Sequence record: PV173775
DNA length: 64,000 nt
Source of the DNA: Escherichia phage GEP001
Strand: one strand, 5' to 3'
The stretch's first letter is position 1. Each line of letters opens with the position of its first letter. The notes beneath the pieces were generated by a model, which saw nothing but the letters and a program-made list of their open reading frames with translations, searched no databases and was not told where the DNA came from. The position numbers and the translations under genes are program-made. Positions 2,342 to 36,646 of this stretch are shown here, piece after piece.

Positions 2342-3670
2342 ATGCAACTGAATAATCGCGATTTAAAAAGTATCATTGATAATGAAGCACTGGCTTATGC
2401 TATGTACACGGTTGAAAATCGTGCTATTCCAAATATGATTGATGGATTTAAGCCAGTCCAACGATTTGTTATTGCTCGAGCTCTTGATTTGGCGCGAGGA
2501 AATAAAGATAAGTTTCACAAACTCGCTTCTATTGCAGGTGGTGTAGCTGACCTTGGATATCATCATGGTGAAAACTCTGCGCAAGACGCGGGGGCTTTGA
2601 TGGCTAATACTTGGAATAATAACTTTCCTTTGTTAGATGGTCAAGGAAACTTTGGTTCTCGTACTGTTCAAAAAGCAGCAGCAAGTCGTTATATTTTTGC
2701 TCGTGTAAGTAAAAATTTCTATAACGTATATAAAGATACTGAATATGCTCCGGTACATCAAGATAAAGAACACATTCCGCCTGCTTTCTATTTGCCTATT
2801 ATTCCTACTGTTCTTCTTAATGGTGTTTCCGGTATTGCAACTGGTTATGCAACTTACATTCTTCCTCATAGTGTTTCTTCTGTTAAGAAAGCTGTATTAC
2901 AAGCTCTTCAAGGAAAGAAAGTAACTAAACCGAAAGTAGAATTCCCAGAATTTCGTGGTGAAGTCGTTGAAATTGACGGTCAATATGAAATTCGTGGAAC
3001 GTACAAGTTTACCTCACGAACCCAAATGAATATCACTGAGATTCCGTATAAGTATGATCGTGAAACTTATGTGAGTAAAATCTTAGACCCGCTTGAAGAT
3101 AAAGGCTTCATTACATGGGATGATGCTTGTGGTGAGCATGGCTTTGGCTTTAAAGTTAAATTCCGTAAAGAATATTCTTTGAGCGATAACGAAGAAGAAC
3201 GTCACGCGAAAATTATGAAAGACTTCGGGTTGATTGAGCGTCGTTCCCAGAATATTACCGTTATTAATGAGAAAGGAAAGCTGCAAGTTTACGATAACGT
3301 AGTTGATTTAATTAAAGACTTTGTTGAAGTTCGTAAAACTTATGTCCAAAAACGAATTGATAATAAAATCAAAGAAACTGAATCAGCATTTCGTTTAGCC
3401 TTTGCCAAGGCACATTTCATTAAGAAAGTGATTTCGGGTGAAATTGTTGTACAAGGTAAAACTCGCAAAGAACTGACCGAAGAACTTTCTAAAATTGAGA
3501 TGTATTCTTCTTATGTTGATAAACTAGTCGGAATGAATATTTTTCATATGACTTCTGATGAAGCAAAGAAACTTGCTGAAGAAGCTAAAGCTAAGAAAGA
3601 AGAAAACGAATATTGGAAAACTACTGATGTAGTTACAGAATACACCAAAGATTTAGAGGAAATCAAATGA
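2342..3670 (+). CDS. 52: DNA topoisomerase II medium subunit gp52 (442 aa)
   Basis: Length and sequence match recalled T4 gp52. Confidence 0.95.
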   Translation: MQLNNRDLKSIIDNEALAYAMYTVENRAIPNMIDGFKPVQRFVIARALDLARGNKDKFHKLASIAGGVADLGYHHGENSAQDAGALMANTWNNNFPLLDGQGNFGSRTVQKAAASRYIFARVSKNFYNVYKDTEYAPVHQDKEHIPPAFYLPIIPTVLLNGVSGIATGYATYILPHSVSSVKKAVLQALQGKKVTKPKVEFPEFRGEVVEIDGQYEIRGTYKFTSRTQMNITEIPYKYDRETYVSKILDPLEDKGFITWDDACGEHGFGFKVKFRKEYSLSDNEEERHAKIMKDFGLIERRSQNITVINEKGKLQVYDNVVDLIKDFVEVRKTYVQKRIDNKIKETESAFRLAFAKAHFIKKVISGEIVVQGKTRKELTEELSKIEMYSSYVDKLVGMNIFHMTSDEAKKLAEEAKAKKEENEYWKTTDVVTEYTKDLEEIK

Positions 3671-3816
3671 GTCCATTCATTGGTATTACAAGTGCGGCGT
3701 TAGTATCTGGTAGCATTTTACTGGCGGGTTTAGGCGTTGTTCCAGCCGTAGCAGGAGGTCTTCTTGCGTTCGGCATTCAACGTGTTATCATGACAGTTAT
3801 CACAGTCATGCAGTAA
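3667..3816 (+). CDS. small membrane protein, 49 aa
   Basis: ATGA overlap with gene 52 stop; Gly/Ala-rich hydrophobic peptide. Confidence 0.5.
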   Translation: MSPFIGITSAALVSGSILLAGLGVVPAVAGGLLAFGIQRVIMTVITVMQ

Positions 3817-3817
3817 T

Positions 3818-3870
3818 TTTAGGGAGAGCCTCGGCTCTCCAAAGCATACTGTGGTACTATACAACTATCA
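3818..3870 (+). promoter_or_regulatory. stem-loop (ggagagcc..ggctctcc) plus extended -10 element upstream of motA; resembles the promoter-early-stem-loop (PeSL) cassettes described in T4-type phages
   Basis: Hairpin 3823-3840 followed by 31-mer shared with 20406-20436. Confidence 0.5.
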
Positions 3871-3901
3871 AATACTGATACAGAATTACGGAGATTAGAA
3901 A

Positions 3902-4537
3902 ATGTCTAAAGTAACTTACATCATCAAAGCTTCTAACGATGTTCTGAATGAAAAAACTGCTGCGATTTTAATTACCATTGCTAAGAAAGATTTCATTACA
4001 GCTGCAGAAGTTCGTGAGGTGCATCCAGATTTAGGTAATGCAGTAGTTAATAGTAATATTGGGGTATTGATTAAAAAAGGCCTAGTGGAGAAATCCGGTG
4101 ATGGATTAATCATTACAGGTGAAGCTCAGGATATTATTTCAAATGCGGCAACTTTATACGCACAGGAAAACGCTCCTGAACTGCTGAAAAAACGAGCAAC
4201 TCGTAAAGCTCGCGAAATTACTTCTGATATGGAAGAAGATAAAGACTTCATGTTAAAACTTTTAGATGAAAATGGATTTGTTCTTAAAAAAGTTGAAACT
4301 TATCGTAGTAACTATCTCGCTATTTTAGAAAAACGCACTCACGGAATTCGCAATTTTGAAATTAACAACAATGGAAATATGCGAATTTTTGGATACAAAA
4401 TGATGGAACATCATATTCAGAAATTTACTGATATCGGAATGTCATGTAAAATCGCTAAAAACGGTAATGTGTATCTTGACATTAAACGCTCGGCAGAAAA
4501 CATTGAAGCTGTAATCACCGTAGCATCTGAACTGTGA
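3902..4537 (+). CDS. motA: middle-transcription activator MotA (211 aa)
   Basis: Sequence and length match recalled T4 MotA. Confidence 0.95.
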   Translation: MSKVTYIIKASNDVLNEKTAAILITIAKKDFITAAEVREVHPDLGNAVVNSNIGVLIKKGLVEKSGDGLIITGEAQDIISNAATLYAQENAPELLKKRATRKAREITSDMEEDKDFMLKLLDENGFVLKKVETYRSNYLAILEKRTHGIRNFEINNNGNMRIFGYKMMEHHIQKFTDIGMSCKIAKNGNVYLDIKRSAENIEAVITVASEL

Positions 4538-4547
4538 GGAATAAATA

Positions 4548-4877
4548 ATGAACAAGTTAGAAATTATCAATGAACTTCGTCGTTGTGCAGAACCTACTCA
4601 AGAGGGATGGGGCATCTGGTACCACGGGGCTTATCTTGGAACTATCGTAAAGATTAAGACCGGTAAATACATGATTATTCGTGAAAGTAAAGATGCTCCA
4701 GTAGGTATTCGCAATAATTTTATGGCAGCGATAAGTTCATTTACGGATGCAGCTTACGAAATTTACCTTGCTGATTATAAAGAATTCCAGGAATCTCAAC
4801 CAGTTATTCGCTCAATTGGTGTTAACAAAGCTCAACAGAAAACTTTGTGGCAGCGTATTAAAGGATGGTTTAAATGA
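4548..4877 (+). CDS. hypothetical early protein, 109 aa
   Basis: ORF with ribosome site, translationally coupled to next ORF. Confidence 0.7.
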
Positions 4878-5335
4878 ATCCATTTATTAATCGTTTAAAA
4901 ATGCTGAATGTTCCTTTATCTCGTGAAACTCCAGAAAGTCTTGTTCAAAAATTTAAAGCACATGGTTATAAATGCACAGAAGAAGATATTCTTGCAGAAG
5001 TTCCGGAAATTTGTTGGCAAACCGCATACTGGGATGAAAACCAAAAGTACCAACGACGGATTGTTTGCGCAGCCAACCGTTTTAAATTAAAAGATGGACG
5101 AACTCTTGTTATTCCAGGTGCTCGTCATTATTCTAAAGATATGGCAGCAGTTTTAGATGTAGTTAAACCCCAATTAGTTACTCAGCAAGTTTGTGATGAT
5201 GACCAAGGGTTTATTGACCAATATAGTAATTATTGGACACGTGAAGAAGCAATGATTATTGCAACTTACGCTGGACAAGTACGTATTGAACGCGGCGGTA
5301 GTGAAAAAGAACTTTACTCTGAGGACCTTTACTAA
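4874..5335 (+). CDS. hypothetical early protein, 153 aa
   Basis: ORF, ATGA overlap with upstream ORF. Confidence 0.7.
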
Positions 5336-5403
5336 TGAATATTAAAAAGTTTCAAATTGATGGAATTACTAATCAAATCCAGGCGTTGTAATATGCCAAT
5401 AAA

Positions 5404-5631
5404 ATGATGTCAACTAATTGGGGAATTTATGCTAATGAACCTGCATTTCAGTTTTGTGATATGGAATTAACTAAAAAGCTCGTAGGAAAAGATTATGTAT
5501 GTCCATTTAGTTCCCCAATAAATGGAATGTTAAAACCTGCTTTACGCGATCTTTATATTGCGATGAACGAAGAGATGATAAAAGAGCTAAAACGTCAACT
5601 GAAGGTGATTCAATTTGGCCAGGGAAATTAA
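5404..5631 (+). CDS. hypothetical protein, 75 aa
   Basis: ORF in the arn-motA interval. Confidence 0.55.
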   Translation: MMSTNWGIYANEPAFQFCDMELTKKLVGKDYVCPFSSPINGMLKPALRDLYIAMNEEMIKELKRQLKVIQFGQGN

Positions 5632-5833
5632 TTCAAAATCCGATTATTTTAACTCTCTCAATGATAAAGATAAAAATCTAATACGGCACTTTATCGTTGA
5701 GATGGGATATACTGACACACGTGATTTAAGAGAACATATATTTGAATGTGGTGTAGCTAAAAAGTTTTCATTCACATGCAAATGTTTAAGAGAGGTGATT
5801 CAGCACTATGAACAATTTAGTCGCAAAACATAA
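5615..5833 (+). CDS. hypothetical protein, 72 aa
   Basis: ORF overlapping previous by 17 nt. Confidence 0.5.
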   Translation: MAREINSKSDYFNSLNDKDKNLIRHFIVEMGYTDTRDLREHIFECGVAKKFSFTCKCLREVIQHYEQFSRKT

Positions 5834-5916
5834 TTTTAATAAAGCTTCTGTTCATAAAGATAAGAAGAAAGCGTTTAAAGAATCTAATCGCAAACAGAAA
5901 CATAAGGGGAAGGTCT

Positions 5917-6195
5917 ATGATTATTGATTCTCAATCTGTGGTTCAATATACAATCAAAATTGATATTCTAGAAAAGCTATATAAGTTTCTACCAAATTTA
6001 TACCACTCAATTGTTAATGAATTAGTTGAAGAACTACATCTTGAGAATAATGATTTCTTGGTTGGAACTTATAAAGACCTCTCAAAAGCAGGATATTTTT
6101 ACGTAATTCCAGCTCCAGGAAAAAGTATTGATGATGTATTAAAAACTATAATGATTTACGTCCATGATTACGAAATTGAAGATTATTTCGAATGA
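5917..6195 (+). CDS. arn: anti-restriction nuclease Arn (92 aa)
   Basis: 92-aa ORF immediately upstream of asiA as in T4; sequence consistent with recalled Arn. Confidence 0.8.
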   Translation: MIIDSQSVVQYTIKIDILEKLYKFLPNLYHSIVNELVEELHLENNDFLVGTYKDLSKAGYFYVIPAPGKSIDDVLKTIMIYVHDYEIEDYFE

Positions 6196-6344
6196 GTCAT
6201 AATCTTGAAAAGGTAATCGAGCATAATGTAGCTCAGGAACGTGAGTCGTTCAAGGAATTCGTAGAAAAAATTTTTGAAGAAAATAACACAGACCAGTTTA
6301 CAAATCAAGTGTCTGATGGTATTATAATAAAGTCAACTAATTGA
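6192..6344 (+). CDS. hypothetical small acidic protein, 50 aa
   Basis: ATGA overlap with arn stop; between arn and asiA. Confidence 0.45.
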   Translation: MSHNLEKVIEHNVAQERESFKEFVEKIFEENNTDQFTNQVSDGIIIKSTN

Positions 6345-6356
6345 GTGGTATAGTTA

Positions 6357-6629
6357 ATGAATAAAAACATTGATACAGTTCGTGAAATTATTACTGTTGC
6401 GTCTATTTTGATTAAATTTTCCAGAGAAGATATTGTTGAGAATCGTGCTAATTTTATTGCATTTCTGAATGAGATTGGAGTAACGCATGAAGGTAGAAAG
6501 TTAAATCAGAATTCATTCCGTAAAATTGTTTCTGAATTAACCCAAGAAGATAAGAAAACCCTCATCGACGAATTCAACGAGGGTTTTGAGGGTGTATATC
6601 GATATCTAGAGATGTATACAAACAAATAA
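6357..6629 (+). CDS. asiA: anti-sigma70 factor AsiA (90 aa)
   Basis: Sequence matches recalled T4 AsiA. Confidence 0.95.
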   Translation: MNKNIDTVREIITVASILIKFSREDIVENRANFIAFLNEIGVTHEGRKLNQNSFRKIVSELTQEDKKTLIDEFNEGFEGVYRYLEMYTNK

Positions 6630-7286
6630 TTATTTAGCCCTTCCTAATATTCTGGCCGCCTGAGAACATATTGATTCAAGGCGGTCATTACTTATATGAT
6701 CATTTCTATACCAGTACATGGTTATTGTTCCAGCATAGATATTATCCAAATTGAAATATGGACAACTATACATGTAATTTATTTCGGGAGTAGGCTTTTT
6801 AGTTGGTAAAAAAGCAAATTTTGAATTGGAATAATAGTGACGTCCATTTAAATGAACTGTATATTCATCCATAGTTTTATCAACAGGATATCCTCCAAGT
6901 GATTTTTCGCTTATTGTTGAAGGTAATTTTCCTTCATATGCTATGATATCAACAAAATAGTTTAAGTTTTTAGGGCGGAAAGAATACACCGCACTAAAGT
7001 CTGCCTCAGATGATATATGAACTATCTGGAGTTGTTCCAGGGCGACAGATTCAAAGCGTGCATTTCTTTCCTTTTCAATAATTTCACTGTATGTTTCATA
7101 CTTTGATTGCTTATAGTACTCAAAGAAACTATCTCCCCTATACCAAACAATCGCCATCATAAATAAAAGAATTACGACAGCTACTCGGGAAGCAAGAACC
7201 TTCCCGGTAGCGTTATCTTTGAACAAGCGATCTAGAACACCCAACAGAATATCAGAGGGCGAAAATGATATTCTAGGTGCTGCCAT
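6630..7286 (-). CDS. t: holin T (218 aa)
   Basis: Sequence matches recalled T4 holin t (MAAPRISFSPSDIL..., single TM). Confidence 0.95.
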   Translation of the reverse strand: MAAPRISFSPSDILLGVLDRLFKDNATGKVLASRVAVVILLFMMAIVWYRGDSFFEYYKQSKYETYSEIIEKERNARFESVALEQLQIVHISSEADFSAVYSFRPKNLNYFVDIIAYEGKLPSTISEKSLGGYPVDKTMDEYTVHLNGRHYYSNSKFAFLPTKKPTPEINYMYSCPYFNLDNIYAGTITMYWYRNDHISNDRLESICSQAARILGRAK

Positions 7287-7316
7287 AGACCCTCCTTTTA
7301 AGGATATTTATTCAAA

Positions 7317-8105
7317 TTATACTCTTGGACCATATATTGCTCCAACGTTTTGCCATGTCGGTGTAGACCCTATGACGGCATAACCAGCAGCACCGCCATC
7401 GTATTCATATCCTTGACCACGAATATTACATCTACCTCCTGCGGAGCCAACTTCACCACCAGACCCGCCGCTATAGATACCGTTCACAGACCCTGCGCCA
7501 GGCGCAGAAATAGTACCAGCAGTTGCTCCTGATTGCATATCAATAGATCCGCCGGGCGCGCCAAACGGACGACCGCCGCCACCGCCAAAGGTCAATCTCA
7601 TTTGTGAAAAAGGAGAATAATATCCGCCGCCACCGCCGCCGCCGCCGCCAGCAATAGCTCCGCCATTATTAATTCTTAGTCTCCCACCAATATCATTTTG
7701 AATACAATGACCCCCAGCTGAGCCAGGACTATTGCTACCGCCATTCCCGCCACGGCCATACATCGTTACACCATGTATATTCAGTTGAACATATTCATTC
7801 GGTGTATCTCCGTACATGAAGAATAAAGGAACATCTTTAGAATATGATACTAAATCTCCAGTGATATTAAACACTATAGGTGCACTACCTGCCTCAAAAC
7901 ATCTATCTCGGAACCATTGGCCATTGAAGTTATGGTCTGCTCCAAGCGTGTGAATTATTTCAACAGATCGACCTATCATATTACTCATCCAGAACGGAAT
8001 GCCCATTCTTAATCGTTGGGCCGCGCCACCCATCCAATTTTGTCCTGTATTAACTACTGCAGACGATCCTACCCACGGTCCTGTTACTGCCATATAAACC
8101 TCCAA
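7317..8105 (-). CDS. 38: long tail fibre tip adhesin gp38, T2-type (262 aa, glycine-rich motifs)
   Basis: Position downstream of gene 37; poly-Gly motifs flanking variable segments typical of T2-like gp38 adhesins; T4 gp38 is 183 aa. Confidence 0.85.
7624..7649 (-). repeat. GGC/GCC trinucleotide tract encoding poly-Gly in gp38
   Basis: ccgccgccaccgccgccgccgccgcc on + strand; second shorter tract at 7573-7586. Confidence 0.8.
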
Positions 8106-8119
8106 GGGGCCGAAGCCCC
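8106..8119 (-). other. stem-loop in the gene 37 / gene 38 junction (ggggc-uucg-gcccc on mRNA)
   Basis: Hairpin immediately upstream of gene 38 ribosome site. Confidence 0.5.
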
Positions 8120-8124
8120 TCTTA

Positions 8125-11100
8125 TTATTTTAACAACGATTTAACTAATGCTTTAAGTTCTTCGATTTCTGATTTAAGTTCTGCAATTTCTGCAGTATGC
8201 TCATTGATTGCAGCTGTATTTAAACCAATTATACCGTTATAGTTCAAACGAAGTAAAGCTTCACCATCAGGGTCACCTTCAACCAATTCAGGTAAAATAG
8301 CTTGAACTTCTTGAGCTATCAAACCGGCGTTAGGTTCCCATTTCTGATTGCCTTCTTCATCTAGGCCTCGCTTCTGCATATAAGTGTAACCGTTAATTTT
8401 AGAAAGCTTCTCAGAAGCATTTTCAAATTTAACAAGGTCTTTTTTAACACGAATATCAGAACGGACATAAACATCGCGGACAAATGTGGAATAGGCATCG
8501 CTTTGTTGGATTAAATGACCAAAAGAAATAATAGCTCTTCCTTGTTCAGTCCACAAAGCACCAGTGGTATCCCAAAGACCTTCATGGAGATGGTAAGCGG
8601 ACGACCATGAAGCAATATGCATTCCATTTGCAACCATGTTAATACGACCGTCACCGCCATGAACTAACCCAGTGTCATTATCACCAATAACAACACATGC
8701 GCCTGTCCATGCAGGGTCACCTCCACCAGCTGATATTCTTACTCCAGCTTTAACCATGTCAGGAACGTACATGTTTCCATTATGGTGGAATTCGAAGATA
8801 GCTTGCGGATCGCTAGCATTTTCCTGGTTACCAACACGAATAATAGCCTGAGCCCATTGGTTAGTGATACGGCGCATACCAAAATCTACGCCTGATACGT
8901 ATCCTTCGTTAGTAATGACAGATTTCCCTTTGATAATTGGATAATAGCTATCATTACCTACGTAGCCAAAATCCACAAATATCGGTGCTTCTTGTCGCCA
9001 TTGGTTTGCCCAATCGCCAGCTTGGTGCGCAATCCAGTATGCTCCATTTATATAAAGACGGTCCCTATTAAAATTAAAAGTAGCAGACCCTTGAGGAGAT
9101 AAAGTAATTTCTCCGACATCATTAATGTTAACACCGCTGTTAGTTTGAAAACTATAAAACGATATAGCATTATCAGCGCCGCCATTGCCTACATACCAGT
9201 TATTAACACCACCTTTTTTACCTTTAACATAGCCAGCTTCATCTGCTGGATAATCAATAACAACAGCGTCTGAGTTGGTTTTAAGAGTTAAACGGCCTGT
9301 CATCGTGTCGCCTTCTTTAGCCACACGGGAGGCAATAGCATCATGAAGGTTGGTTATATCACCAGCAGAGCTAAATAATTTCCAAATATCAGAGAAGATA
9401 TTACCATTTCGAGCAATAGTAGCTTCACCACCACCAACCTGTACGTTATCTGGGAAGTTAACAGTACCGTCCTGATTAAAACGAGACGTATGGCCTTGTG
9501 AACCATCTTCTTTCAGATGATGAATAACGAATGTACCTGAATTAATTTCAGTACCTAAAGACCAAACGGATTTACCGTTTAGAAACTTCTGTTTAACAAT
9601 AGGATAATATTTGCTTACAGCATCATCATCGATTTCCTGGAAAATAGGAGCCGCTTGAACATATTGAATGTCATAACCGCCGGCACCCGCTCCATGACCA
9701 GTAAATTTAATATAACCGTTTGCTGCGAACGTATTGTAACTTGATTGTAAATCTGGAATAGTAACTTTACCAGTATCTAAAGCCATACTAAACGGGCGAA
9801 GTGGACCGATATCGCCATGTTTACCTTCGCCATAAGCAGTTGGAATAATATGAAGACTGCCTTCTGAACGTCTAAAAATAGCTCCATAATCTGCGTTCCA
9901 AATGCGAAGCGCATTCACTGCTCCAGATGAAATTTCGCCTGTTGTGTGAACTCCTCTATTTCCAGCAGTAACACCGGATGATTCAAATGAACCATTGACG
10001 TTCATTTCTACTTCACCAGTAGTAAGTCTTTGAATATAACTCATCCAGCTAGTTGCATCAGAAATTTCCATGACATTTTTACGATTACCTACACTAGGAT
10101 TAGTAAACGTATTACCCCATACAGAAATTGTCATATTATCAACTGAACTGCTACCAGTTGTGTTACCTCTAAACAACAGCGTAGAAGCATTATTACGACC
10201 ATCAATATTAACAGAACCACCAATAACGTCAATATTACCTGGAGTAACTAACAAACCGCCATGAGTATTAATGTTTGTGGTACCCTTACCGCGGAAATAA
10301 TGATGATAATTACCACCTTGGTAATATCCTAAAAGAGTCTGACCGTCACCGTATGCGTTATTATCATGGTAAGTAACAACAGTAGCCAAAGCATAGTTTT
10401 CAGTCGGAGGAGTAGTTAAATCTGTTCCATTAGTAGAATATCCAGCTACAAATTTTCTTAGGCTAGTTGTTTCGCTAGGGCTAAATAAAAATGTTTTCGT
10501 TCCATTATTGACGCTGAAATAATATCCATCCTGATGCCATTTAAATCCGGTATCATTATCGCCAAGAGAAATTGAAGCAGTCCCTAATTCAGAGTATCCT
10601 TTATTGCCACCAGGAGTACCAACAGAAATAGAATGGCCTGCTTTCAATCCACCGGACCAGGTAAACGACCAAAGATAAGTGTCTAAGCCATCTCCAGTAT
10701 ACCAAGTTATTCCATCATTATCTTTAACTTCATGGAATACACCAGCGCCTACAGCATTGCGCATAACACGGAGATGATTAATAGCAGTAGTGCTTTCAGA
10801 CAATGGAACGTTGTCTGCCATAGAATAAATGTCATAATCGCTCGTAGATTTATTATTAGTAATAACTCTATTTGTCAAAATCTGAGGAGTTGACATAGAT
10901 TTCCATGCTGATACTTCAGGTGAAGTAAATAGGCCACTGCCTGAAAATGCATAGGTGCTTTCATCACCCGCGGCGTAGTCTTTAACGCGGATATTAACTA
11001 CTTGCGTAGTTAATCCATCATTAGCCGGTGCATAAATGATTCCACGTTCACGATCAGCTGAATCATGAAAACGAACATGTGCTGTACCTGAACTTTTTGT

Positions 11101-11436
11101 AATAAGTTCTCCGCCTTCGGTCATAATCTGCCCGGCGGCAATAATATCGCGAGTTACTCGAGCAATACCAGTTAAATTAAAATTACCTGTCTGAGTGAAG
11201 GTGCCATTTAAAGTATAATCACCAGTTTGATTATAGTTTCCTATATGAATAACATTCCCGTCAATACTACCGCCCTTAGCAAAACCAAGATCAATGATAT
11301 TTCCTTGGTCGTCTTTAGTAAAAAGTACGCGGTCTTTTAAGTTTATAGCCAATTCACCTTCGGCTAATACTGAAGCGGCAGGACGTGCTCCTGCAGTTTT
11401 GCTTCTTTTAAATTGTATTTGTTTTAAAGTAGCCAT
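8125..11436 (-). CDS. 37: long tail fibre distal subunit gp37 (1103 aa)
   Basis: Position, size and N-terminal sequence typical of T-even gp37; differs in length from T4 (1026 aa). Confidence 0.9.
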
Positions 11437-17157: not shown

Positions 17158-17192
17158 TCTCCCGGGCTCCTATTGTGTTTTCAATAATAAGT

Positions 17193-17200
17193 ATTTATAC
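17193..17200 (-). promoter_or_regulatory. late promoter TATAAATA for gene 34
   Basis: Exact match on - strand upstream of gene 34 start. Confidence 0.65.
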
Positions 17201-17202
17201 TT

Positions 17203-17232
17203 GTTTACTTTAAGATTCGGATGGTATATAAT
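17203..17232 (+). promoter_or_regulatory. early promoter for rnh (GTTTAC / TATAAT)
   Basis: Consensus match with 18-nt spacer. Confidence 0.6.
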
Positions 17233-17261
17233 AGAAATCTCACTAATTGAACGAGGTTCAT

Positions 17262-19423: not shown

Positions 19424-19432
19424 TTGCTTATT

Positions 19433-19440
19433 ATAAATAG
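19433..19440 (+). promoter_or_regulatory. late promoter TATAAATA upstream of gene 32
   Basis: Exact TATAAATA. Confidence 0.5.
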
Positions 19441-19456
19441 ATTATAATTATCTCAC

Positions 19457-19522
19457 TGACCAGCTATGAGGTCATACATCGTCATAGCACCAACTGTTAA
19501 TTAAATTAAAAAGGAAATAAAA
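19457..19522 (+). promoter_or_regulatory. gene 32 translational operator: H-type pseudoknot followed by unstructured A/U-rich leader
   Basis: tgacc..ggtca and gctatga..tcatagc interleaved stems followed by ttaaattaaaaaggaaataaaaATG, as in the T4 gene 32 autoregulatory leader. Confidence 0.8.
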
Positions 19523-20701
19523 ATGTTTAAACGTAAATCTACTGCTGAACTCGCTGCACAAATGGCTAAACTGGCTGGAAATAAAGGTGGTTTTTCTTCT
19601 GAAGATAAAGGCGAGTGGAAACTGAAACTCGACAATGCGGGTAACGGTCAAGCAGTAATTCGTTTTCTTCCGTCTAAAAATGATGAACAAGCACCATTCG
19701 CAATTCTTGTAAATCACGGTTTCAAGAAAAATGGTAAATGGTATATTGAAAACTGTTCATCTACCCACGGTGATTACGATTCTTGTCCAGTATGTCAGTA
19801 CATCAGTAAAAATGATTTGTATAACACTGACAATAAAGAGTACGGTCTTGTTAAACGCAAAACTTCTTACTGGGCTAACATTCTTGTAGTAAAAGACCCA
19901 GCTGCTCCAGAAAATGAAGGTAAAGTATTTAAATACCGTTTCGGTAAGAAAATCTGGGATAAAATCAATGCAATGATTGCAGTTGATGTTGAAATGGGTG
20001 AAACTCCGGTTGATGTAACTTGTCCGTGGGAAGGTGCTAACTTTGTACTGAAAGTTAAACAAGTTTCTGGTTTTAGTAACTACGACGAATCTAAATTCCT
20101 GAATCAATCTGCGATTCCAAACATTGATGATGAATCTTTCCAGAAAGAACTGTTCGAACAAATGGTTGACCTTTCTGAAATGACTTCTAAAGATAAATTC
20201 AAATCGTTTGAAGAACTGAGCACTAAGTTCAGTCAAGTTATGGGAACTGCTGCTATGGGTGGTGCCGCAGCAACTGCCGCTAAGAAAGCTGATAAAGTTG
20301 CTGATGATTTGGATGCATTCAATGTTGATGACTTCAAAACAAAAACTGAAGATGATTTTATGAGCTCAAGTTCTGGCAGTTCATCTAGTGCTGATGACAC
20401 GGACCCCAAAGCATACTGTGGTACTATACAACTATCGGCAATACTGCTGATGATGATTAAAGAGGAAAATAACATGGCTAAAATTGATATTGATGTTGTT
20501 GATTTTGAATATATTGAAGAAATTATTCGTAATCGTTATCCTGAACTCCGTATCATAAGCGCACTAAATGATCCTAATTGCAATGTTTCAGTTGTTATTG
20601 AAGGTCCTTTAAATCGTCTTAAACAATTTATGATTAATGAATATTGTGACGGTATGGATGCTAAAGATGTAGAATTTTACACAGGATTTATTGAGCAGTA
20701 A
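19523..20701 (+). CDS. 32: ssDNA-binding protein gp32; ORF is 392 aa because residues after ADDTD read through a promoter cassette into the next gene (T4 gp32 is 301 aa)
   Basis: First 293 aa match recalled T4 gp32; canonical C-terminal LDDLLNDL and stop absent; frame continues through 20406-20473 into ATG at 20474. Confidence 0.85.
20406..20436 (+). promoter_or_regulatory. promoter-cassette 31-mer (ccaaagcatactgtggtactatacaactatc) embedded in the gene 32 reading frame
   Basis: Identical to 3839-3869. Confidence 0.45.
20474..20701 (+). CDS. hypothetical 75-aa protein (frd.3-like), in frame with and possibly also translated separately from gp32
   Basis: Own AAAGAGGAAAA ribosome site and ATG at 20474 inside the extended gene 32 frame. 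Confidence 0.5.
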
Positions 20702-20745
20702 TTATCAAGGGGCTATCAAGCCCCTATTAAAATGAGGAAAAGAAA

Positions 20746-21111
20746 ATGTATATCGGTAAAAAGTATGAACTTGTTCCAAGACTTATTGATACATTTATTA
20801 ATTATCGTCCACGTTCTAATTCAGCAATAGTTAAAATTATTCAAGAAAATGGCGGATGGTTTGAAGTTAAAGAAGCTTTCTTTGTTGATGGATTTAGAGT
20901 AATAAAACACATTGAATGCGCAAATGGAAAGCATTTTTACTTTAACGTTTGCGAAGACGAATTTCATTGTTTTCGTGAGTATAAAGAACCGACTTTTGAA
21001 GAAGATGAAGTCGAAGACAAGGTTTCTGGCGTAACAAAAATTCACTGCATTGTAGATGAAAACAATGTAGACGAAATCATTGAACTTTTGCGAAAAACTT
21101 TCAAAAAGTAG
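20746..21111 (+). CDS. hypothetical early protein, 121 aa
   Basis: ORF with GAGGAAAA ribosome site. Confidence 0.7.
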   Translation: MYIGKKYELVPRLIDTFINYRPRSNSAIVKIIQENGGWFEVKEAFFVDGFRVIKHIECANGKHFYFNVCEDEFHCFREYKEPTFEEDEVEDKVSGVTKIHCIVDENNVDEIIELLRKTFKK

Positions 21112-21140
21112 TTTACAGTAGGGTAGTAGTGTGATACTAT
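21111..21140 (+). promoter_or_regulatory. early promoter (GTTTAC / TGaTACTAT)
   Basis: Consensus match; leader nearly identical to that at 768-790. Confidence 0.6.
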
Positions 21141-21165
21141 TACCCTATCAACTAAGGAGAATAAA

Positions 21166-21418: not shown

Positions 21419-21754
21419 ATGTCTGACATTCACGTAACTGGAATTGCCCAAGTAAATATCCGCTGCCAATTTAAAACTGTACCTGGGGTGACTCATATTA
21501 CTTTATCACACGACCCATATTCTCGTGGAAGACAGTTAACTGGCGTAATTAAGTTTTTTGGTGGAATTGGCGGAAACGAATTTACTATAGGCGATGACGA
21601 AATTGTTGGCTGTAAATTAAAAGTTCAGAAGGGCGTGTTAGAACTTTTTAGTGATGAAGTTTTTGATGAAATTTCACAAGCAGTTAATAAAGGAATGTTA
21701 ACGTTAATTAAAATGATTAAAGCTAGTGGATATGTTCCCGATCCTTTATATTAG
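21419..21754 (+). CDS. hypothetical protein, 111 aa
   Basis: ORF with GAGG site. Confidence 0.7.
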   Translation: MSDIHVTGIAQVNIRCQFKTVPGVTHITLSHDPYSRGRQLTGVIKFFGGIGGNEFTIGDDEIVGCKLKVQKGVLELFSDEVFDEISQAVNKGMLTLIKMIKASGYVPDPLY

Positions 21755-21762
21755 GAGATAAT

Positions 21763-22005
21763 ATGATTTTTGTTTTTGAATTTATGAATGATGAATTTGA
21801 TTATGCAATTTTTAACGCATTGCATAATCCTGATTTAAATGAATTTAATGAAATGTTTTCTGACGCTTTGAGTATGTCAGAAGAATACTGTGGAGAATGT
21901 CAACGTGTTTGCGTGACAGTCTTTGAAAACAAAGAAAAGACATATGAAGAATTATTCTTTGATGCTAATAAAGCCACTGAATGGTTTATTGAAAGGGGGT
22001 TTTGA
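21763..22005 (+). CDS. hypothetical protein, 80 aa
   Basis: ORF with GGAG site, directly upstream of frd. Confidence 0.65.
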   Translation: MIFVFEFMNDEFDYAIFNALHNPDLNEFNEMFSDALSMSEEYCGECQRVCVTVFENKEKTYEELFFDANKATEWFIERGF

Positions 22006-22593: not shown

Positions 22594-22601
22594 AATAACA
22601 C

Positions 22602-22961
22602 GTGGCGGAAAATATGAATTTTAATTACTACCCTATTCTATTAGAAAAAGACGCGAAACAACCAAAATGGCAGGGTCCTCAGTTTATTAAAGGTGTCTAT
22701 CAATTAGTAGTTCCTAAAGACAAAATTTATAGCAGTTGTTTCACTGAATCCGCTTGTAGTATTTTTGGTAATAATTCTCCGTATTGGAATTTTGATATAA
22801 AGCTTGACAGAAATATCGATATTTGGTTGAAAGCTATGGATATCGGCAATATCACGTTTGATGAGAATAATTATCATATTATTGGTCGCTTTTCCAAGCG
22901 TGGTAAAGAATTGTATTTTACGCCTGAAATTGAAAGAAAATTTGATGCTAAACCGTATTGA
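22602..22961 (+). CDS. hypothetical protein, 119 aa, inserted between frd and td
   Basis: Complete ORF 8 nt after frd stop; no recognisable motifs. Confidence 0.7.
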   Translation: MAENMNFNYYPILLEKDAKQPKWQGPQFIKGVYQLVVPKDKIYSSCFTESACSIFGNNSPYWNFDIKLDRNIDIWLKAMDIGNITFDENNYHIIGRFSKRGKELYFTPEIERKFDAKPY

Positions 22962-23006
22962 TTATTTAGCTTCATAAAATGTATTATAATTTATATAAGG
23001 TACTAA

Positions 23007-23867
23007 ATGAAACAATACCAAGATTTAATTAAAGACATTTTTGAAAATGGCTATGAAACCGATGACCGAACAGGCACAGGAACAATTGCTTTGTTCGGTA
23101 CTAAATCACGCTGGGATTTAACTAAAGGTTTTCCTGCAGTAACGACTAAGAAACTCGCTTGGAAAGCTTGCATCGCTGAGCTAATATGGTTTTTATCAGG
23201 AAGCACAAATGTCAATGATTTGCGTTTAATTCAGCATGATTCATTAATTCAAGGCAAAACAGTCTGGGATGAAAATTACGAAAATCAAGCAAAAGATTTA
23301 GGATATCATAGTGGTGAACTTGGTCCAATTTATGGAAAACAGTGGCGTGATTTTGGCGGTGTAGACCAAATTGTAGAAGTTGTTGATCGTATTAAAAAAC
23401 TGCCAAATGATAGACGTCAAATTGTTTCAGCATGGAATCCAGCTGAACTTAAATATATGGCATTACCGCCTTGTCATATGTTCTATCAGTTTAATGTGCG
23501 TAATGGCTATTTGGATTTGCAGTGGTATCAAAGAAGTGTTGACGTGTTCTTGGGCTTGCCATTCAACATTGCATCATATGCTGCATTAGTTCATATTGTA
23601 GCTAAGATGTGTAATCTTATTCCAGGAGATTTGATATTTTCTGGTGGTAATACTCATATCTATATGAATCACGTGGAACAATGTAAAGAAATTTTACGTC
23701 GTGAACCTAAAGAGCTTTGTGAACTGGTAATAGGCGGATTGCCTTATAAATTCCGCTATCTTTCTACTAAAGAACAATTGGAATACATTCTTAAACTCAG
23801 GCCTAAAGATTTCGTTCTTAAAGGTTACGAATCACACCCTCCTATTAAAGGAAAAATGGCGGTGTAA
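23007..23867 (+). CDS. td: thymidylate synthase (286 aa), uninterrupted (no group I intron)
   Basis: Continuous 286-aa ORF with thymidylate synthase motifs (PPCH active-site region). Confidence 0.95.
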   Translation: MKQYQDLIKDIFENGYETDDRTGTGTIALFGTKSRWDLTKGFPAVTTKKLAWKACIAELIWFLSGSTNVNDLRLIQHDSLIQGKTVWDENYENQAKDLGYHSGELGPIYGKQWRDFGGVDQIVEVVDRIKKLPNDRRQIVSAWNPAELKYMALPPCHMFYQFNVRNGYLDLQWYQRSVDVFLGLPFNIASYAALVHIVAKMCNLIPGDLIFSGGNTHIYMNHVEQCKEILRREPKELCELVIGGLPYKFRYLSTKEQLEYILKLRPKDFVLKGYESHPPIKGKMAV

Positions 23868-24434: not shown

Positions 24435-26689
24435 TTAATGTTATCAAAAGTAGTGGTGTTTCTCAAAGCTTTGACCCGCAAAAAATTATTAAAGTTTTAT
24501 CTTGGGCAGCTGAAGGAACATCTGTAGATCCTTATGAATTATATGAAAATATTAAATCATATCTCCGTGATGGAATGACCACTGATGACATTCAAACCAT
24601 TGTAATTAAGGCTGCTGCGAATTCTATTTCAGTTGAAGAGCCTGATTACCAATATGTAGCTGCACGCTGTTTAATGTTTGCTCTTCGTAAGCATGTTTAC
24701 GGGCAATATGAACCACGTTCATTTATTGACCATATTTCTTACTGTGTAAATGAAGGTAAATATGACCCTGAATTGTTGTCAAAATATTCAGCAGAAGAAA
24801 TTACATTTTTAGAATCAAAAATTAAGCATGAGCGGGATATGGAATTTACTTATTCCGGAGCGATGCAATTAAAAGAAAAATATCTAGTTAAAGATAAAAC
24901 CACTGGTCAAATTTATGAAACTCCACAGTTTGCATTTATGACTATTGGAATGGCATTGCATCAAGATGAACCTGTTGACAGATTAAAACACGTTATCCGT
25001 TTTTATGAAGCAGTATCCACTCGACAGATTTCATTGCCAACTCCTATTATGGCTGGATGTCGTACTCCAACTCGGCAATTTAGTTCATGTGTTGTTATTG
25101 AGGCAGGTGATTCGCTGAAGTCTATCAATAAGGCTTCTGCTTCAATTGTTGAATATATCTCCAAACGAGCTGGAATCGGCATTAACGTTGGTATGATTCG
25201 TGCCGAAGGTTCTAAGATTGGCACAGGTGAAGTACGCCATACTGGTGTTATTCCTTTTTGGAAACATTTTCAGACTGCTGTTAAATCATGTTCACAGGGC
25301 GGAATTCGTGGCGGCGCTGCTACTGCTTATTATCCTATTTGGCATTTGGAAGTTGAAAATCTTCTCGTTTTGAAAAATAACAAAGGTGTAGAAGAAAACC
25401 GTATCCGTCATATGGATTATGGCGTCCAGCTGAATAACCTAATGATGGAACGTTTTGGAAAGAACGACTACATTACTTTGTTCAGTCCGCATGAAATGGG
25501 TGGCGAGCTTTATTATTCTTATTTTAAAGACCAAAACCGTTTCCGCGAATTATACGAAGCAGCAGAAAAAGACCCTAATATTCGCAAAAAGCGTATTAAA
25601 GCCCGTGAACTATTTGAATTACTCATGACTGAACGATCAGGAACAGCAAGGATTTATGTGCAGTTCATTGATAATACGAATAATTATACTCCGTTTATTC
25701 GTGAAAAGGCACCTATTCGTCAGAGTAACTTGTGTTGTGAAATTGCTATTCCAACAAATGATGTGAATAGTCCTGATGCCGAAATTGGATTGTGTACGTT
25801 ATCTGCATTTGTGTTGGATAACTTCGATTGGCAAGACCAAGATAAAATTAATGAATTAGCAGAAGTTCAAGTTCGCGCTCTTGATAATCTTTTGGATTAC
25901 CAAGGATATCCAGTTCCTGAAGCAGAAAAAGCTAAAAAGCGTCGAAATCTTGGTGTAGGTGTTACCAACTATGCAGCTTGGCTGGCAAGTAACTTTGCTT
26001 CTTATGAAGATGCTAACGATTTAACACATGAACTATTTGAGAGATTACAGTATGGACTCATTAAAGCATCCATTAAGCTCGCCAAAGAAAAAGGACCTTG
26101 CGAATATTATTCAGACACTCGTTGGTCTCGAGGCGAATTACCTATCGACTGGTACAATAAAAAGATTGACCAAATCGCAGCTCCAAAATACGTTTGTGAC
26201 TGGTCGTCGCTGCGGGAAGACCTTAAGCTCTTTGGCATCCGTAATAGCACATTATCAGCACTTATGCCATGTGAGTCATCTTCCCAAGTTTCTAACAGTA
26301 CAAACGGTATCGAGCCTCCACGTGGACCAGTCTCTGTTAAAGAGTCAAAAGAGGGCTCCTTTAATCAAGTCGTGCCCAATATTGAGCATAACATAGACCT
26401 ATATGATTATACATGGAAATTAGCTAAGAAAGGTAATAAACCTTATCTTACGCAGGTAGCTATTATGCTTAAATGGGTATGTCAATCAGCTTCAGCGAAT
26501 ACATATTATGACCCGCAGATTTTTCCAAAAGGAAAGGTTCCAATGTCTGTAATGATTGATGACCTTTTGTACTTTTGGTATTTTGGCGGAAAAAATTTCT
26601 ATTATCATAATACCCGCGACGGTTCTGGTACTGATGATTATGAAATAGAAACTCCAAAAGCTGAAGATTGTTCATCCTGTAAATTATGA
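24425..26689 (+). CDS. nrdA: aerobic ribonucleotide reductase large subunit (754 aa)
   Basis: Size identical to T4 NrdA; class I RNR motifs. Confidence 0.95.
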   Translation: MQLINVIKSSGVSQSFDPQKIIKVLSWAAEGTSVDPYELYENIKSYLRDGMTTDDIQTIVIKAAANSISVEEPDYQYVAARCLMFALRKHVYGQYEPRSFIDHISYCVNEGKYDPELLSKYSAEEITFLESKIKHERDMEFTYSGAMQLKEKYLVKDKTTGQIYETPQFAFMTIGMALHQDEPVDRLKHVIRFYEAVSTRQISLPTPIMAGCRTPTRQFSSCVVIEAGDSLKSINKASASIVEYISKRAGIGINVGMIRAEGSKIGTGEVRHTGVIPFWKHFQTAVKSCSQGGIRGGAATAYYPIWHLEVENLLVLKNNKGVEENRIRHMDYGVQLNNLMMERFGKNDYITLFSPHEMGGELYYSYFKDQNRFRELYEAAEKDPNIRKKRIKARELFELLMTERSGTARIYVQFIDNTNNYTPFIREKAPIRQSNLCCEIAIPTNDVNSPDAEIGLCTLSAFVLDNFDWQDQDKINELAEVQVRALDNLLDYQGYPVPEAEKAKKRRNLGVGVTNYAAWLASNFASYEDANDLTHELFERLQYGLIKASIKLAKEKGPCEYYSDTRWSRGELPIDWYNKKIDQIAAPKYVCDWSSLREDLKLFGIRNSTLSALMPCESSSQVSNSTNGIEPPRGPVSVKESKEGSFNQVVPNIEHNIDLYDYTWKLAKKGNKPYLTQVAIMLKWVCQSASANTYYDPQIFPKGKVPMSVMIDDLLYFWYFGGKNFYYHNTRDGSGTDDYEIETPKAEDCSSCKL

Positions 26690-26740
26690 TATAATTTGAC
26701 TCACGGACGAGTCACTATCTATTAACTAAGCGGAAAATTT

Positions 26741-27919
26741 ATGAGCACAGTTTTTAATACAAATCCAGTTGATGTTTTAAAAGAACCTATGTTCTTCGGT
26801 TCAGGTCTTGGTATTGCGCGTTATGATATTCAACGTCATAAAGTTTTTGAAGATTTAACCGAAAAGCAGTTGTCATTTTTCTGGCGTCCTGAAGAAGTAA
26901 ACTTAATGATGGATGCTGCACAATTTAACAAGCTTCCTCAATATCAGCAAGATATTTTTACTAATAATCTGAAGTATCAATCACTTCTAGATAGCATTCA
27001 GGGTCGTGCGCCATCTGCTGTACTTATGTCATTAATTTCAGACCCAAGTCTTGATACATGGGTTGCTACATGGACTTTTAGTGAAACTATTCACAGTCGT
27101 TCATATACTCATATCATGCGAAATCTTTATACTGATCCATCGAAGGTATTTGATGAGATTGTACTAGATGAAGCTATCATGAAACGTGCTGAATCTATCG
27201 GTCGCTATTATGATGATGTTCTGACTAAAACCCGTGAATGGGAAAATGCTAAAGAATTTACAGAACTAGCTAAAGAATCTCCTGATGCTGTTTTTCGTTT
27301 AAATCGAGCTATTAAACAAGAAGCCGAAGCTAAACGAGCACTAATGAAATCTCTTTACCTCTGTTTGCACGTTATTAATGCCTTAGAAGCTATTCGTTTT
27401 TATGTATCTTTTGCATGTACCTTTAACTTCCATAAGAACATGGAAATCATGGAAGGTAATGCCAAGATTATGAAGTTCATTGCACGTGATGAGCAGCTTC
27501 ACCTTAAAGGCACCCAATATATTATTCGTCAACTTCAATCCGGTACTGATGGCGATGAATGGGTTAAAATTGCTCAAGAGTGTGAACAAGAAGCAGTTGA
27601 TATTTTCATGGAAGTTAACCGCCAAGAAAAAGATTGGGCAGTTCATTTATTTAAAGATGGCGATGTTCCTGGATTAAATACAAATAGCATGTGGAGCTTT
27701 ATTGATTACTTAACTGTATCTCGTATGAAACAGTGTGGTCTTCCATGCCCAATTACCGATGCTCCGGTTAAACATCCATATCCTTGGATTCGTGAATACC
27801 TTAATTCTGATAATGTTCAATCCGCGCCACAAGAAGTAGAACTGTCATCTTACCTTGTTGCACAGATTGATAATGATGTTGATGATAAAGTTATGATGAG
27901 TTTTAAAAAATACTTTTAA
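26741..27919 (+). CDS. nrdB: aerobic ribonucleotide reductase small subunit (392 aa), uninterrupted (no intron)
   Basis: Continuous ORF with R2 di-iron motifs; adjacent to nrdA. Confidence 0.95.
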   Translation: MSTVFNTNPVDVLKEPMFFGSGLGIARYDIQRHKVFEDLTEKQLSFFWRPEEVNLMMDAAQFNKLPQYQQDIFTNNLKYQSLLDSIQGRAPSAVLMSLISDPSLDTWVATWTFSETIHSRSYTHIMRNLYTDPSKVFDEIVLDEAIMKRAESIGRYYDDVLTKTREWENAKEFTELAKESPDAVFRLNRAIKQEAEAKRALMKSLYLCLHVINALEAIRFYVSFACTFNFHKNMEIMEGNAKIMKFIARDEQLHLKGTQYIIRQLQSGTDGDEWVKIAQECEQEAVDIFMEVNRQEKDWAVHLFKDGDVPGLNTNSMWSFIDYLTVSRMKQCGLPCPITDAPVKHPYPWIREYLNSDNVQSAPQEVELSSYLVAQIDNDVDDKVMMSFKKYF

Positions 27920-29537: not shown

Positions 29538-29591
29538 GTTTACAAGTCCCTCGTGTTGTGTTATAGTAGACTTACTGACATAACATGAGGA
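29538..29591 (+). promoter_or_regulatory. early promoter cassette upstream of alc (GTTTAC / TATAGT) with conserved leader
   Basis: Near-identical to 45212-45265. Confidence 0.6.
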
Positions 29592-29595
29592 CTTT

Positions 29596-30969: not shown

Positions 30970-32169
<1,200 letters not shown>

Positions 32170-32562: not shown

Positions 32563-32838
32563 ATGTTTCCGACTTACTCTAAAATCGTAGAAGTAGTGTT
32601 TAGTCAAATTATCGCTAATAACATGTTTGAAAAGCTTGATAATGCAGCTGAACTTCGAATCCACGCTCAAGTGACTCATGTATTGAACACTTTGCTTCCA
32701 GACCAGGTGGATTCTATCGCCATTACGCTGTATCCAGGTTCCGCGCATATCATTGTCGTATTTGGTCTTGATGCTGAGTTAGTTATCAAAGGCGATATTC
32801 GTTTTGAATCGCAGACATCAGAATTCAAAGCAATTTAA
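32563..32838 (+). CDS. hypothetical protein, 91 aa
   Basis: ORF. Confidence 0.55.
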   Translation: MFPTYSKIVEVVFSQIIANNMFEKLDNAAELRIHAQVTHVLNTLLPDQVDSIAITLYPGSAHIIVVFGLDAELVIKGDIRFESQTSEFKAI

Positions 32839-32840
32839 CA

Positions 32841-32870
32841 GTTTACTTTACAGTAGAGTTGTGATATTAT
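32841..32870 (+). promoter_or_regulatory. early promoter (GTTTAC / TGaTATTAT)
   Basis: Consensus match. Confidence 0.6.
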
Positions 32871-32900
32871 AGCTCTACCAAAACAAATGAGGAAATTGAA

Positions 32901-33428
32901 ATGAGCGAATGGTTTGAAGAAGGTAAGGTTTATCGCTTTAAAGCTGGATATAAAGATATTTTTAATGAAACTTGCGGGGCTAATAAACGAATTGCCCAGT
33001 TTATTGGGGAAAATTCATTTAAAGTAAAAATAGATCCTGCGAAAAATGTTATTAGCATTAAACGCGAAATTGATGATTGCTGGTATAAAGCTGTTGATGT
33101 AATGGGTGAATCCTATAAAGTTAGTCCGTTATTTTCAATTGCTTATATGTTAGAATATTCTTTTTTCGAAGAAGTTCAAAAAGATGATTCTGCCAGTAAA
33201 TTTGAAATTAAAGCTGATAAAGAAATTAAGTGGAAAGTAGTAGGTATTACTGGTTGTATGTTCTATATCTATGCTCAAACTGATACGAAGGAAGAAGCTA
33301 AACAGAAAGCTCTAGAATATCTTGAAGAGTATGAAGAAGGTCCGGTAATGATTACTCAAGATGCTGAATTAGTTTCTGTCAAATTAGTTAAAAACGTTGA
33401 AAGTAAGGAGCTAGGATCAACATGCTAA
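32901..33428 (+). CDS. hypothetical protein, 175 aa
   Basis: ORF after early promoter 32841-32870. Confidence 0.7.
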   Translation: MSEWFEEGKVYRFKAGYKDIFNETCGANKRIAQFIGENSFKVKIDPAKNVISIKREIDDCWYKAVDVMGESYKVSPLFSIAYMLEYSFFEEVQKDDSASKFEIKADKEIKWKVVGITGCMFYIYAQTDTKEEAKQKALEYLEEYEEGPVMITQDAELVSVKLVKNVESKELGSTC

Positions 33429-36201: not shown

Positions 36202-36206
36202 GTTGA

Positions 36207-36234: not shown

Positions 36235-36254
36235 TCCAAAGATTGCACAAAGTT

Positions 36255-36284: not shown

Positions 36285-36311
36285 TATCTTACACAAACAA
36301 AGGAGAATAAA

Positions 36312-36644: not shown

Positions 36645-36646
36645 TT

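Follow-up and report, generated by a model that had tools for sequence, protein, structure and literature searches.

The dispersed near-identical repeats in the early regions of Escherichia phage GEP001 are probably sigma-70-dependent early promoters that have exchanged segments among themselves and have served as crossover points for the genes adjoining them. The analysis covered a stretch of 64,000 nucleotides of this genome (record PV173775), hereafter the window. Positions 3000-9000 gave megablast matches of 95-97% to many Tequatrovirus (T4-like) genomes, and by these matches the window is assigned to Tequatrovirus. A blastn comparison against T4 positions 100001-168903 revealed that the window is collinear with T4 from 167317 down to 103329, its + strand corresponding to the minus strand of T4 and reading in the direction in which early genes are transcribed. 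By their position on this map the repeats are identified as orthologues of the T4 early promoters for ndd.6, ndd.4, motA, frd.3, frd.1, alc and alt.-3, and it is from this orthology that we infer that transcription starts at them early in infection.

An early-promoter pattern (GTTTAC-N16-18-TAnnnT) was scanned, and 11 exact GTTTAC-N17/18-TAnnnT sites were found on the + strand (positions 232, 738, 6296, 17203, 21111, 29538, 32841, 36255, 36647, 45212 and 60443). Ten of them map to the T4 promoters before ndd.6, ndd.4, asiA, rnh, frd.1, alc, cd.2, 30.8, 30.7 and alt.-3, and the two copies of a 31-mer, at 3839 and 20406, correspond to the T4 motA and frd.3 promoters. Positional orthology, as judged from the blastn map and a promoter scan of T4, thus extended to 12 of the 13 sites (T4 counterparts at 167086, 166807, 163673, 161211, 150763, 146875, 146143, 136336, 133331, 130310, 129918 and 123093). 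The 13 copies were confined to early-strand blocks (1-6.6 kb, 17-45 kb and 60.4 kb), with none in the late-gene blocks, and all were followed by a Shine-Dalgarno sequence (GGAG/GAGG) and an ATG within about 20-50 nt. A/T-rich UP regions and the TG of an extended -10 were also present, the TG being flagged at 233, 739, 6297, 21112 and 29539, while the copies at 3839 and 20406 lack a paired -35 and -10, the -35 having been deleted. A generic sigma-70 scan gave no enrichment over shuffled sequences (24 sites against 26.3 expected, and 78 against 79.1 expected), indicating that only the T4-specific pattern discriminates these promoters.

The intact promoters, all on the + strand, share one anatomy. 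Pe232 (209-289), the orthologue of T4 Pe167086, follows denB and consists of an UP region, GTTTAC at 232-237, an ndd.6-type spacer, TACTAT at 256-261, the start region ACAACTATC and an ndd.4-like leader that extends to the ATG at 290. Pe738 (715-795; T4 Pe166807, ndd.4) has the segment TACTATTACCCTATCAACTA-GGAG in common with Pe21111 (21088-21165; T4 Pe146143, frd.1). Pe6296 (6273-6340) and Pe17203 (17180-17245) are the orthologues of T4 Pe161211 (asiA) and Pe150763 (rnh), Pe32841 (32818-32900; T4 Pe133331) lies between cd.3 and cd.2, and Pe36647 (36624-36700; T4 Pe129918) belongs to gene 30.7. The alc promoter (29538-29595; T4 Pe136336) and the alt.-3 promoter (45212-45272; T4 Pe123093) form a pair sharing a cassette of 54 nt, and the -35 of the latter overlaps the stop codon of the second of two alt paralogues. 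These paralogues are full-length and in tandem (41055-43151 and 43155-45212; 698 and 685 aa), and were recovered as repeat families D3, D6 and D16 with a spacing of 2094-2097 nt; T4 has a single alt plus the remnants alt.-1/alt.-2, termed an old partial duplication in the T4 record. The last site, Pe60443 (60420-60500), stands at the segD site, and its similarity to T4 stops right after the -35 hexamer, at 60449.

The two copies of the 31-mer are truncated promoters. What survives at motA (3839-3902, + strand) is a 16-nt spacer followed by an extended -10, TGgTACTAT, whose -10 hexamer occupies 3855-3860; start region and leader are also kept, as far as the motA start codon (ATG) at 3903. Compared with T4, RB27 and P8, a deletion of 41-42 bp has removed the T-tract of the preceding terminator, the UP element and the -35, leaving the junction GGCTCT/CCAAAGC with a microhomology of 2 nt (CC); in IME537 the corresponding allele reads CTCCCT/CCAAAGC. 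The frd.3 remnant (20406-20473, + strand) consists of the same 16-nt motA-type spacer, a -10 (TACTAT, 20422-20427) and the leader of frd.3, including the Shine-Dalgarno sequence. The native order, as found in JE01 and JB75, is the gene 32 stop codon, a hairpin (GGGGACC…GGTCCCC), six T residues, the UP region, GTTTAC, the spacer AACCAAAGCATACTGTGG, TACTAT and the frd.3 leader. Compared with these two phages, the window and phiC600P9 lack 106 bp, from …GACACGGACC to CCAAAGC, so that the last eight codons and the stop of gene 32, the terminator, the UP element and the -35 are all missing, and the ends are joined bluntly (ACGGACC/CCAAAGC, the four C's being two from each side). Both remnants keep the extended -10 TGgTACTAT, and neither has a -35 hexamer or an UP element. 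Since each upstream terminator has been disabled, motA and frd.3 would probably be expressed by read-through together with weak activity of the remaining promoter.

As a result of the second deletion, gene 32 runs in frame through the promoter remnant into frd.3, generating a gp32-Frd.3 fusion ORF of 392 aa (19523-20701, + strand) without the conserved C-terminal LDDLLNDL. The same ORF (1179 nt) is annotated as 'single stranded DNA-binding protein' in phiC600P9, CrRp10 and vB_Eco-B1.1, and IME537 carries a Frd.3 fusion of 402 aa that arises through a different junction; in TB004, Sfk20 and EO1, gp32 ends in 12 residues translated from promoter sequence. The native cassettes have about 70 nt in common and lie behind strong hairpins, a combination that is hard for some library preparations and assemblers, and the remnants and the fusion could be imagined as artefacts of assembling or sequencing a repeat of about 100 bp with GC-rich hairpins. 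This is hardly credible, given that the same junctions occur in independent isolates from France, Poland and China (CrRp10, vB_Eco-B1.1 and phiC600P9), that variant junctions are found in TB004, Sfk20, SP21535, EO1, IME537 and ZN18, and that the junctions join unique gene 32 coding sequence to a spacer, unlike a repeat collapse.

The repeats reported by the initial annotation were all recovered. The 31-mer at 3839-3869 and 20406-20436 is identical without a mismatch (matches in 0 of 100 shuffles), and its 19-nt core recurs at 252-270; the 54-nt cassette has an exact 31-nt head at 29538 and 45212 and 93% identity over its full length (family D7); and the 19-nt leader is present at 762-780 and 21135-21153. 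An unbiased repeat search returned the same repeats as families D1, D2, D5 and D7. Contrary to their description as lying at early-gene junctions, the copy at 20406 lies inside the 392-aa ORF.

The 13 promoters were aligned on the -10, yielding 78 pairs for comparison. Spacer identity had a median of 39%, or 29% when the TG motif was left out, whereas the alc/alt.-3 spacers were 100% identical (z=4.3) and those of motA and frd.3 were 94% identical over an 18-nt frame (z=3.9) and fully identical over the 16 nt retained by both; outside the TG motif the identity of these two pairs was 93-100%. The leaders of Pe738 and Pe21111 were 90% identical, against a median of 43% (z=3.3). Independent promoters built on a common consensus would show an identity ending at the -10, and here the leaders and spacers of the flagged pairs were more alike than the consensus accounts for, so the repeats are best read, from these alignments, as homologous and not convergent copies.

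That the promoters converged independently on a strong T4 early consensus, with no sequence passing between them, is nevertheless partly reflected in the alignment. The column consensus of the 13 sites (AAaaTt..A.AaAg.. GTTTAC a......t..t..TGTG. TA.TAT A.a.cTATCaA) places TATC after the -10 in at least 9 of the 13 promoters, with GTTTAC and the TG motif near-universal, and part of what had been noted as the leader (…CTATCAA) is therefore a general promoter feature. The published T4 early consensus is also unusually long, with GTTTAC at -36 to -31, a GT-rich segment 5' of -12 and UP elements (Nolan et al. 2006, PMC1524935), and the window consensus matches these features. Convergence of this kind is still highly unlikely, as the spacers outside the TG motif agree at a median of 29% in general and at 93-100% in the two flagged pairs. 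It is further opposed by the T4 motA and frd.3 promoters, which are identical over 38 nt upstream through GTTTAC, non-consensus positions included, and again over TACTATACAACTATC, while their spacers differ, and by the spacer families of the frd.3 locus, each matching a promoter at another locus.

At least four such spacer families were recognised at the frd.3 locus among relatives, three of them matching promoters at other loci. The spacer is of the T4 type in T4 itself; of the motA type in JE01, JB75 and the window; ndd.6-like in IME537 and Sfk20 (15/18 and 15/17 identical to the T4 ndd.6 spacer); and ndd.4-like in ZN18 (15/18), with a looser likeness in SP21535 and EO1. The UP region of the frd.3 promoter is ndd.6-like in ZN18 and IME537, and the leader of the ndd.6 promoter is motA-like in T4 and ndd.4-like in the window. 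The presence of mosaic spacers, leaders and UP regions at these loci points to exchange between cassettes, and the pattern is that expected from recombination within conserved blocks.

The identities might instead be held by function, through a common regulator, ADP-ribosylation of RNA polymerase by Alt/ModA or the 5' end of the transcript, the duplicates themselves being ancient. In this case a requirement at the 5' end, for example for NAD-capping or RegB processing, would be a candidate, and the start region may indeed matter, given that, of the T4 RNAs bearing an NAD cap, those of frd.3 rank among the most abundant (bioRxiv 10.1101/2024.04.04.588121). The alc/alt.-3 pair is compatible with this explanation: its two copies differ at one position in T4 and at four in the window, the -35 to -10 segment does not vary in either of them, and comparison of paralogues and orthologues between T4 and the window gave no sign of ongoing homogenisation, so that the invariance of this segment could be explained by functional constraint. 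Function fails to explain, however, why the frd.3 spacer switches family among close relatives and why divergence blocks and indels end at cassettes, and as a general account of the repeats it is improbable.

For the preferred explanation, exchange between promoters, the following course is proposed. In each cassette an AT-rich UP region is followed by GTTTAC, by a spacer of 17/18 nt with TG at its end, by TAnTAT and by the start region cTATCaA, after which come a leader containing a Shine-Dalgarno sequence and the ATG; in a few cases the terminator of the preceding transcription unit stands in front. The conserved blocks (UP/-35, and -10/start region) would act as homology patches of 20-70 nt dispersed over the early regions, between which the highly active T4 recombination machinery could swap spacers, leaders and upstream halves, and the cassettes would double as crossover points for the deletion, replacement and insertion of adjoining genes. 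The outcome would be sub-families of near-identical cassettes, with breakpoints of gene content and divergence at promoters, and the copies of the 31-mer would be degraded products of the same recombination, extended -10 stumps left after deletions, with motA and frd.3 transcribed in the manner suggested above. Homologous or ectopic recombination is the cause that we infer from the mosaic alleles and the breakpoints.

The association of breakpoints with promoters was evaluated by comparing the window with T4, CrRp10, vB_Eco-B1.1 and IME537, leaving out differences due to homing endonucleases, introns and the tail fibre. Seven of the 11 structural differences had a boundary within -60 to +55 of a -10 (boundaries at 279, 20405, 21161, 32903, 45193, 60449 and 36332/36630), an association with P=0.006-0.04 when breaks are placed at random on gene junctions and 7e-6 when they are placed at random positions, for a small set of 11 events in four comparison genomes that were classed after inspection of the data. 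The break from T4 at 279 falls 23 nt past the first base of the Pe232 -10. The frd.3-frd.2 block (20419-21161), with Pe21111 at its right edge, was only 76-78% identical to T4 and IME537, whereas its flanks were 95-99% identical, and the 95th percentile of the background for such identity jumps was 16 points; this block between two cassettes is a divergent allele. IME537 carries a replacement for gene 30.8, the gene that Pe36255 and Pe36647 enclose, and a 519-bp ORF after Pe32841 (~32901-33425) is absent from T4. Gene content relative to T4 and other relatives does change at cassettes, as the seven events and the switches of divergence at frd.3 and frd.1 attest, and as had been anticipated. 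The clustering of indels at promoters may, for its part, stem from the need of new or retained genes for a promoter and not from recombination.

The further claim that the cassettes mark where this genome differs from T4 was overstated: breaks do fall at promoters, but about half of the differences from T4 are homing endonucleases and introns unrelated to them. The window lacks the T4 segG, the td intron with I-TevI, mobE/nrdB.1, the nrdB intron with I-TevIII, segE and segD (sites 19424-19460, 23554-23559, 26685-26741, 27414-27417, 55627-55647 and 60449-60811), and the segD site holds a different sequence of 361 bp behind Pe60443. The distal tail-fibre region (7311-11270; gp38 and the gp37 tip) could not be aligned with T4, a difference that corresponds to the usual host-range mosaic, since a gp38-type adhesin is annotated there in relatives. 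Small ORFs absent from T4 were found at 21419-22005 (between frd.1 and frd), 22601-23004 (between frd and td) and 30972-31268 (between pseT.1 and pseT), and no early promoter adjoins them.

The notion of mobile modules found no support in the comparison with relatives. The ORF behind Pe232 (290-553) and that behind Pe32841 are present in most relatives, always at a single locus, the former also in RB69-like phages, and T4 retains the last eight codons of the 290-553 ORF. No second cassette was found after the variable ORF at either promoter. As both ORFs are widespread and occupy one locus in every record, they are to be regarded as ancestral genes lost by T4, and their movement between cassettes was rejected on the same ground.

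Stem-loops, which the initial annotation had placed before several copies, were present at both of the sites it named, but the T-tract is kept only at 36205-36226, and elsewhere no stem-loop was found. The hairpin at 36205-36226 has 9 bp and a T-rich tail, and our own hairpin search and an independent scanner agreed on it. It opens the Pe36255 composite (36205-36311, + strand; T4 Pe130310, gene 30.8), where the hairpin and T-tract are followed by an AT-rich region, GTTTAC at 36255, TAGTAT, a Shine-Dalgarno sequence and the ATG at 36312; this is the sole intact terminator and promoter composite in the window (1/13 promoters). At motA, the hairpin of the motA.1 terminator (3823-3840, + strand; GGAGAGCC-TCGG-CTCTCC) directly abuts the promoter stump; it is a real hairpin that has lost its T-tract, and the scanner made no terminator call. 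The hairpin upstream of frd.3 exists in relatives and is deleted in the window, and no upstream hairpin was detected at the ten remaining promoters. The full composite of a promoter early stem-loop (PeSL) is thus the exception in the window, and an upstream terminator is not a general part of its cassettes. Two similar hairpins of another kind (GGGACCGAAAGGTCCC; family D9) were found at 45540-45586 and 59064-59110, each with an A-rich run before it, and are probably terminators of late minus-strand genes or bidirectional terminators.

In ZN18 and in one metagenomic contig, an ORF of 75 aa (MKFKIENEIVKAKNALTANKLV...; ZN18 locus ~2178-2405 on the minus strand, contig locus ~1366-1593) is inserted between the motA promoter and motA, followed by a second full early promoter, with the same 23-nt repeat downstream of both cassettes; in its layout, the ZN18 insertion matches the cassette-ORF-cassette unit of the PeSL model. 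A CAAATA variant upstream of the 75-aa ORF is also present in the motA leader of the window. Active mobile PeSLs, in which a pair of cassettes excises a gene as a mini-circle that can reinsert, possibly with the help of a dedicated protein recognising the stem-loop, would account for this arrangement, for the cassette-ORF-cassette arrangement with direct repeats at gene 30.8 in the window and for the recurrence of precise breakpoints at the gene 32 and motA cassettes, and mini-circles have been shown experimentally for RB49/phi1. Such elements are decidedly improbable here, however, considering that an intact stem-loop is missing at 12 of the 13 promoters, that each variable ORF tested was found at a single locus in every genome, and that ordinary T4 recombination, with a homology need of <50 bp (PMC2839356), suffices.

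The screening of relatives for the stumps revealed that a truncated motA promoter is present in about 2% of Tequatrovirus records. The truncation of the window type was found in six distinct phages (nine records) among ~490 records, these allele counts being taken from the GenBank phage collection, while an IMG/VR scan for the 31-mer gave just four contigs, a number too small for allele statistics; TB004 and IME537 carry variant alleles of the motA truncation. In all of the eight phages examined, and in the window, the truncated motA promoter occurred together with a non-native end of gene 32, whereas EO1 has a remodelled gene 32 end and an intact motA promoter. The break in gene 32 falls invariably at …GACACGGAC(C), joined to at least six right-hand partners, four of which leave a spacer of exactly 17 nt. 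The -35 is lost with a 16 nt spacer in the window type, CrRp10, vB_Eco-B1.1 and phiC600P9, and with a 17 nt spacer, from three different spacer families, in TB004, Sfk20, SP21535 and EO1; it is kept at the gene 32 junction in ZN18 and IME537. Within a genome the right-hand edge co-varies between the motA and gene 32 loci (3823-3869 and 20399-20436 in the window), being CCAAAGC at both in the window and ACCAAAGC at both in TB004.

Several candidate causes of these deletions were considered. Hairpin slippage was rejected for the 106-bp deletion, as the predicted fold leaves the endpoints apart. Microhomology at the gene 32 and motA junctions is absent or amounts to 2 nt. An interrupted ACGG..AC patch is common to gene 32 and the UP/-35 boundary and might guide the deletions; it does not predict the retained C. 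Cleavage by SegG was not adopted as the cause of the gene 32 hot spot, its site being one that we take to lie far upstream in gene 32. The two loci could possibly be coupled as old alleles that have stayed linked across the tail-fibre block of 16.5 kb; geometry may instead have been selected, with CGGACC serving as a pseudo -35 at 17 nt, and templated repair between the motA and gene 32 loci or a site-directed break are further possibilities. The stumps may even be non-random, produced by directed break-and-repair or templated copying, or maintained by selection for a rewired early programme, a conceivable but rather unlikely reading. If it were true, motA and frd.3 would depend on read-through and gp32 would bear a new C-terminus, either the 12 residues read from promoter sequence or the in-frame Frd.3 fusion.

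The type of element is known from other T4-type phages. Comeau, Arbiol & Krisch (2014, PMC4122927) described PeSLs for the T-even pair T4/PST, giving TTTACW-N17-TAYWAT as their promoter, placing stem-loops shortly before it and noting degraded '1/2' forms close to indels. The window agrees with them in phage group, promoter consensus, AT-rich upstream region and the Shine-Dalgarno sequence and ATG at the 3' end, and also in the location of the elements in variable early regions, near indels between close relatives, and in having degraded '1/2' elements; the ndd region, from which that paper draws an example, lies at the start of the window. In contrast, the window keeps a stem-loop with a T-tract at 1/13 promoters, and its stumps have lost the -35 and kept the -10, whereas the degraded T4/PST forms keep the -35. 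The text of PMC4122927 makes no mention of motA, frd or gene 32. The PeSL reading of the initial annotation is upheld in part: for the promoters, for their identity beyond the consensus, for the breaks of gene content and divergence and for the published T4/PST precedent, and not for the full layout, found at one promoter, or for the 31-mers, which are stumps; the window is a further, well-resolved case of a kind already published for T4/PST.

In RB49/phi1, PeSLs combine a strong early promoter with a terminator stem-loop and serve modular shuffling (Arbiol et al. 2010, PMC2839356), and the RB49 crossovers were located to the interval from the -10 to the ATG (PMC2839356). The window shares with them composite linker cassettes for modular exchange and cassette-ORF-cassette units, and its breaks at 279, 21161 and 32903 likewise lie between the -10 and the ATG. 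The RB49 promoters, unlike those of the window, are near-perfect TTGACA/TATAAT with GGGG...CCCC stem-loops, and the RB49/phi1 mini-circles were demonstrated experimentally. The T4 early promoters (Pe) have been catalogued and compared across T4-like phages (Nolan et al. 2006, PMC1524935), and the T4 record itself annotates Pe133295; the window agrees with this class in positional orthology (12/13), GTTTAC, the GT-rich extended -10 and UP elements, and differs from it in its two stumps without the defining -35 and UP features. Shuffling at the T-even internal-protein locus (Repoila et al. 1994, as cited in PMC4122927) appears from that citation to be comparable, involving gene replacement between conserved regulatory sequences in T-even phages, at a separate locus that lies outside the window.

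The finding re-identifies published T4 early promoters and the PeSL idea, and its importance is modest; what it adds is a quantified example of spacer swapping at one locus, a divergent block bounded by cassettes and the cassette-ORF-cassette insertion at motA. The unexplained by-product at motA and gene 32 may matter more than the finding itself. An essential textbook protein, gp32, exists in natural forms in which the conserved acidic tail at its C-terminus is replaced or in which the protein is fused to Frd.3, and this change is coupled to the loss of the strong early promoter of MotA, the activator of middle transcription. If the coupling is functional, it would offer a natural handle on the tuning of the early-to-middle switch and on the protein-interaction tail of gp32; if it is mechanistic, it would point to a recombination hot spot with nucleotide-level precision.
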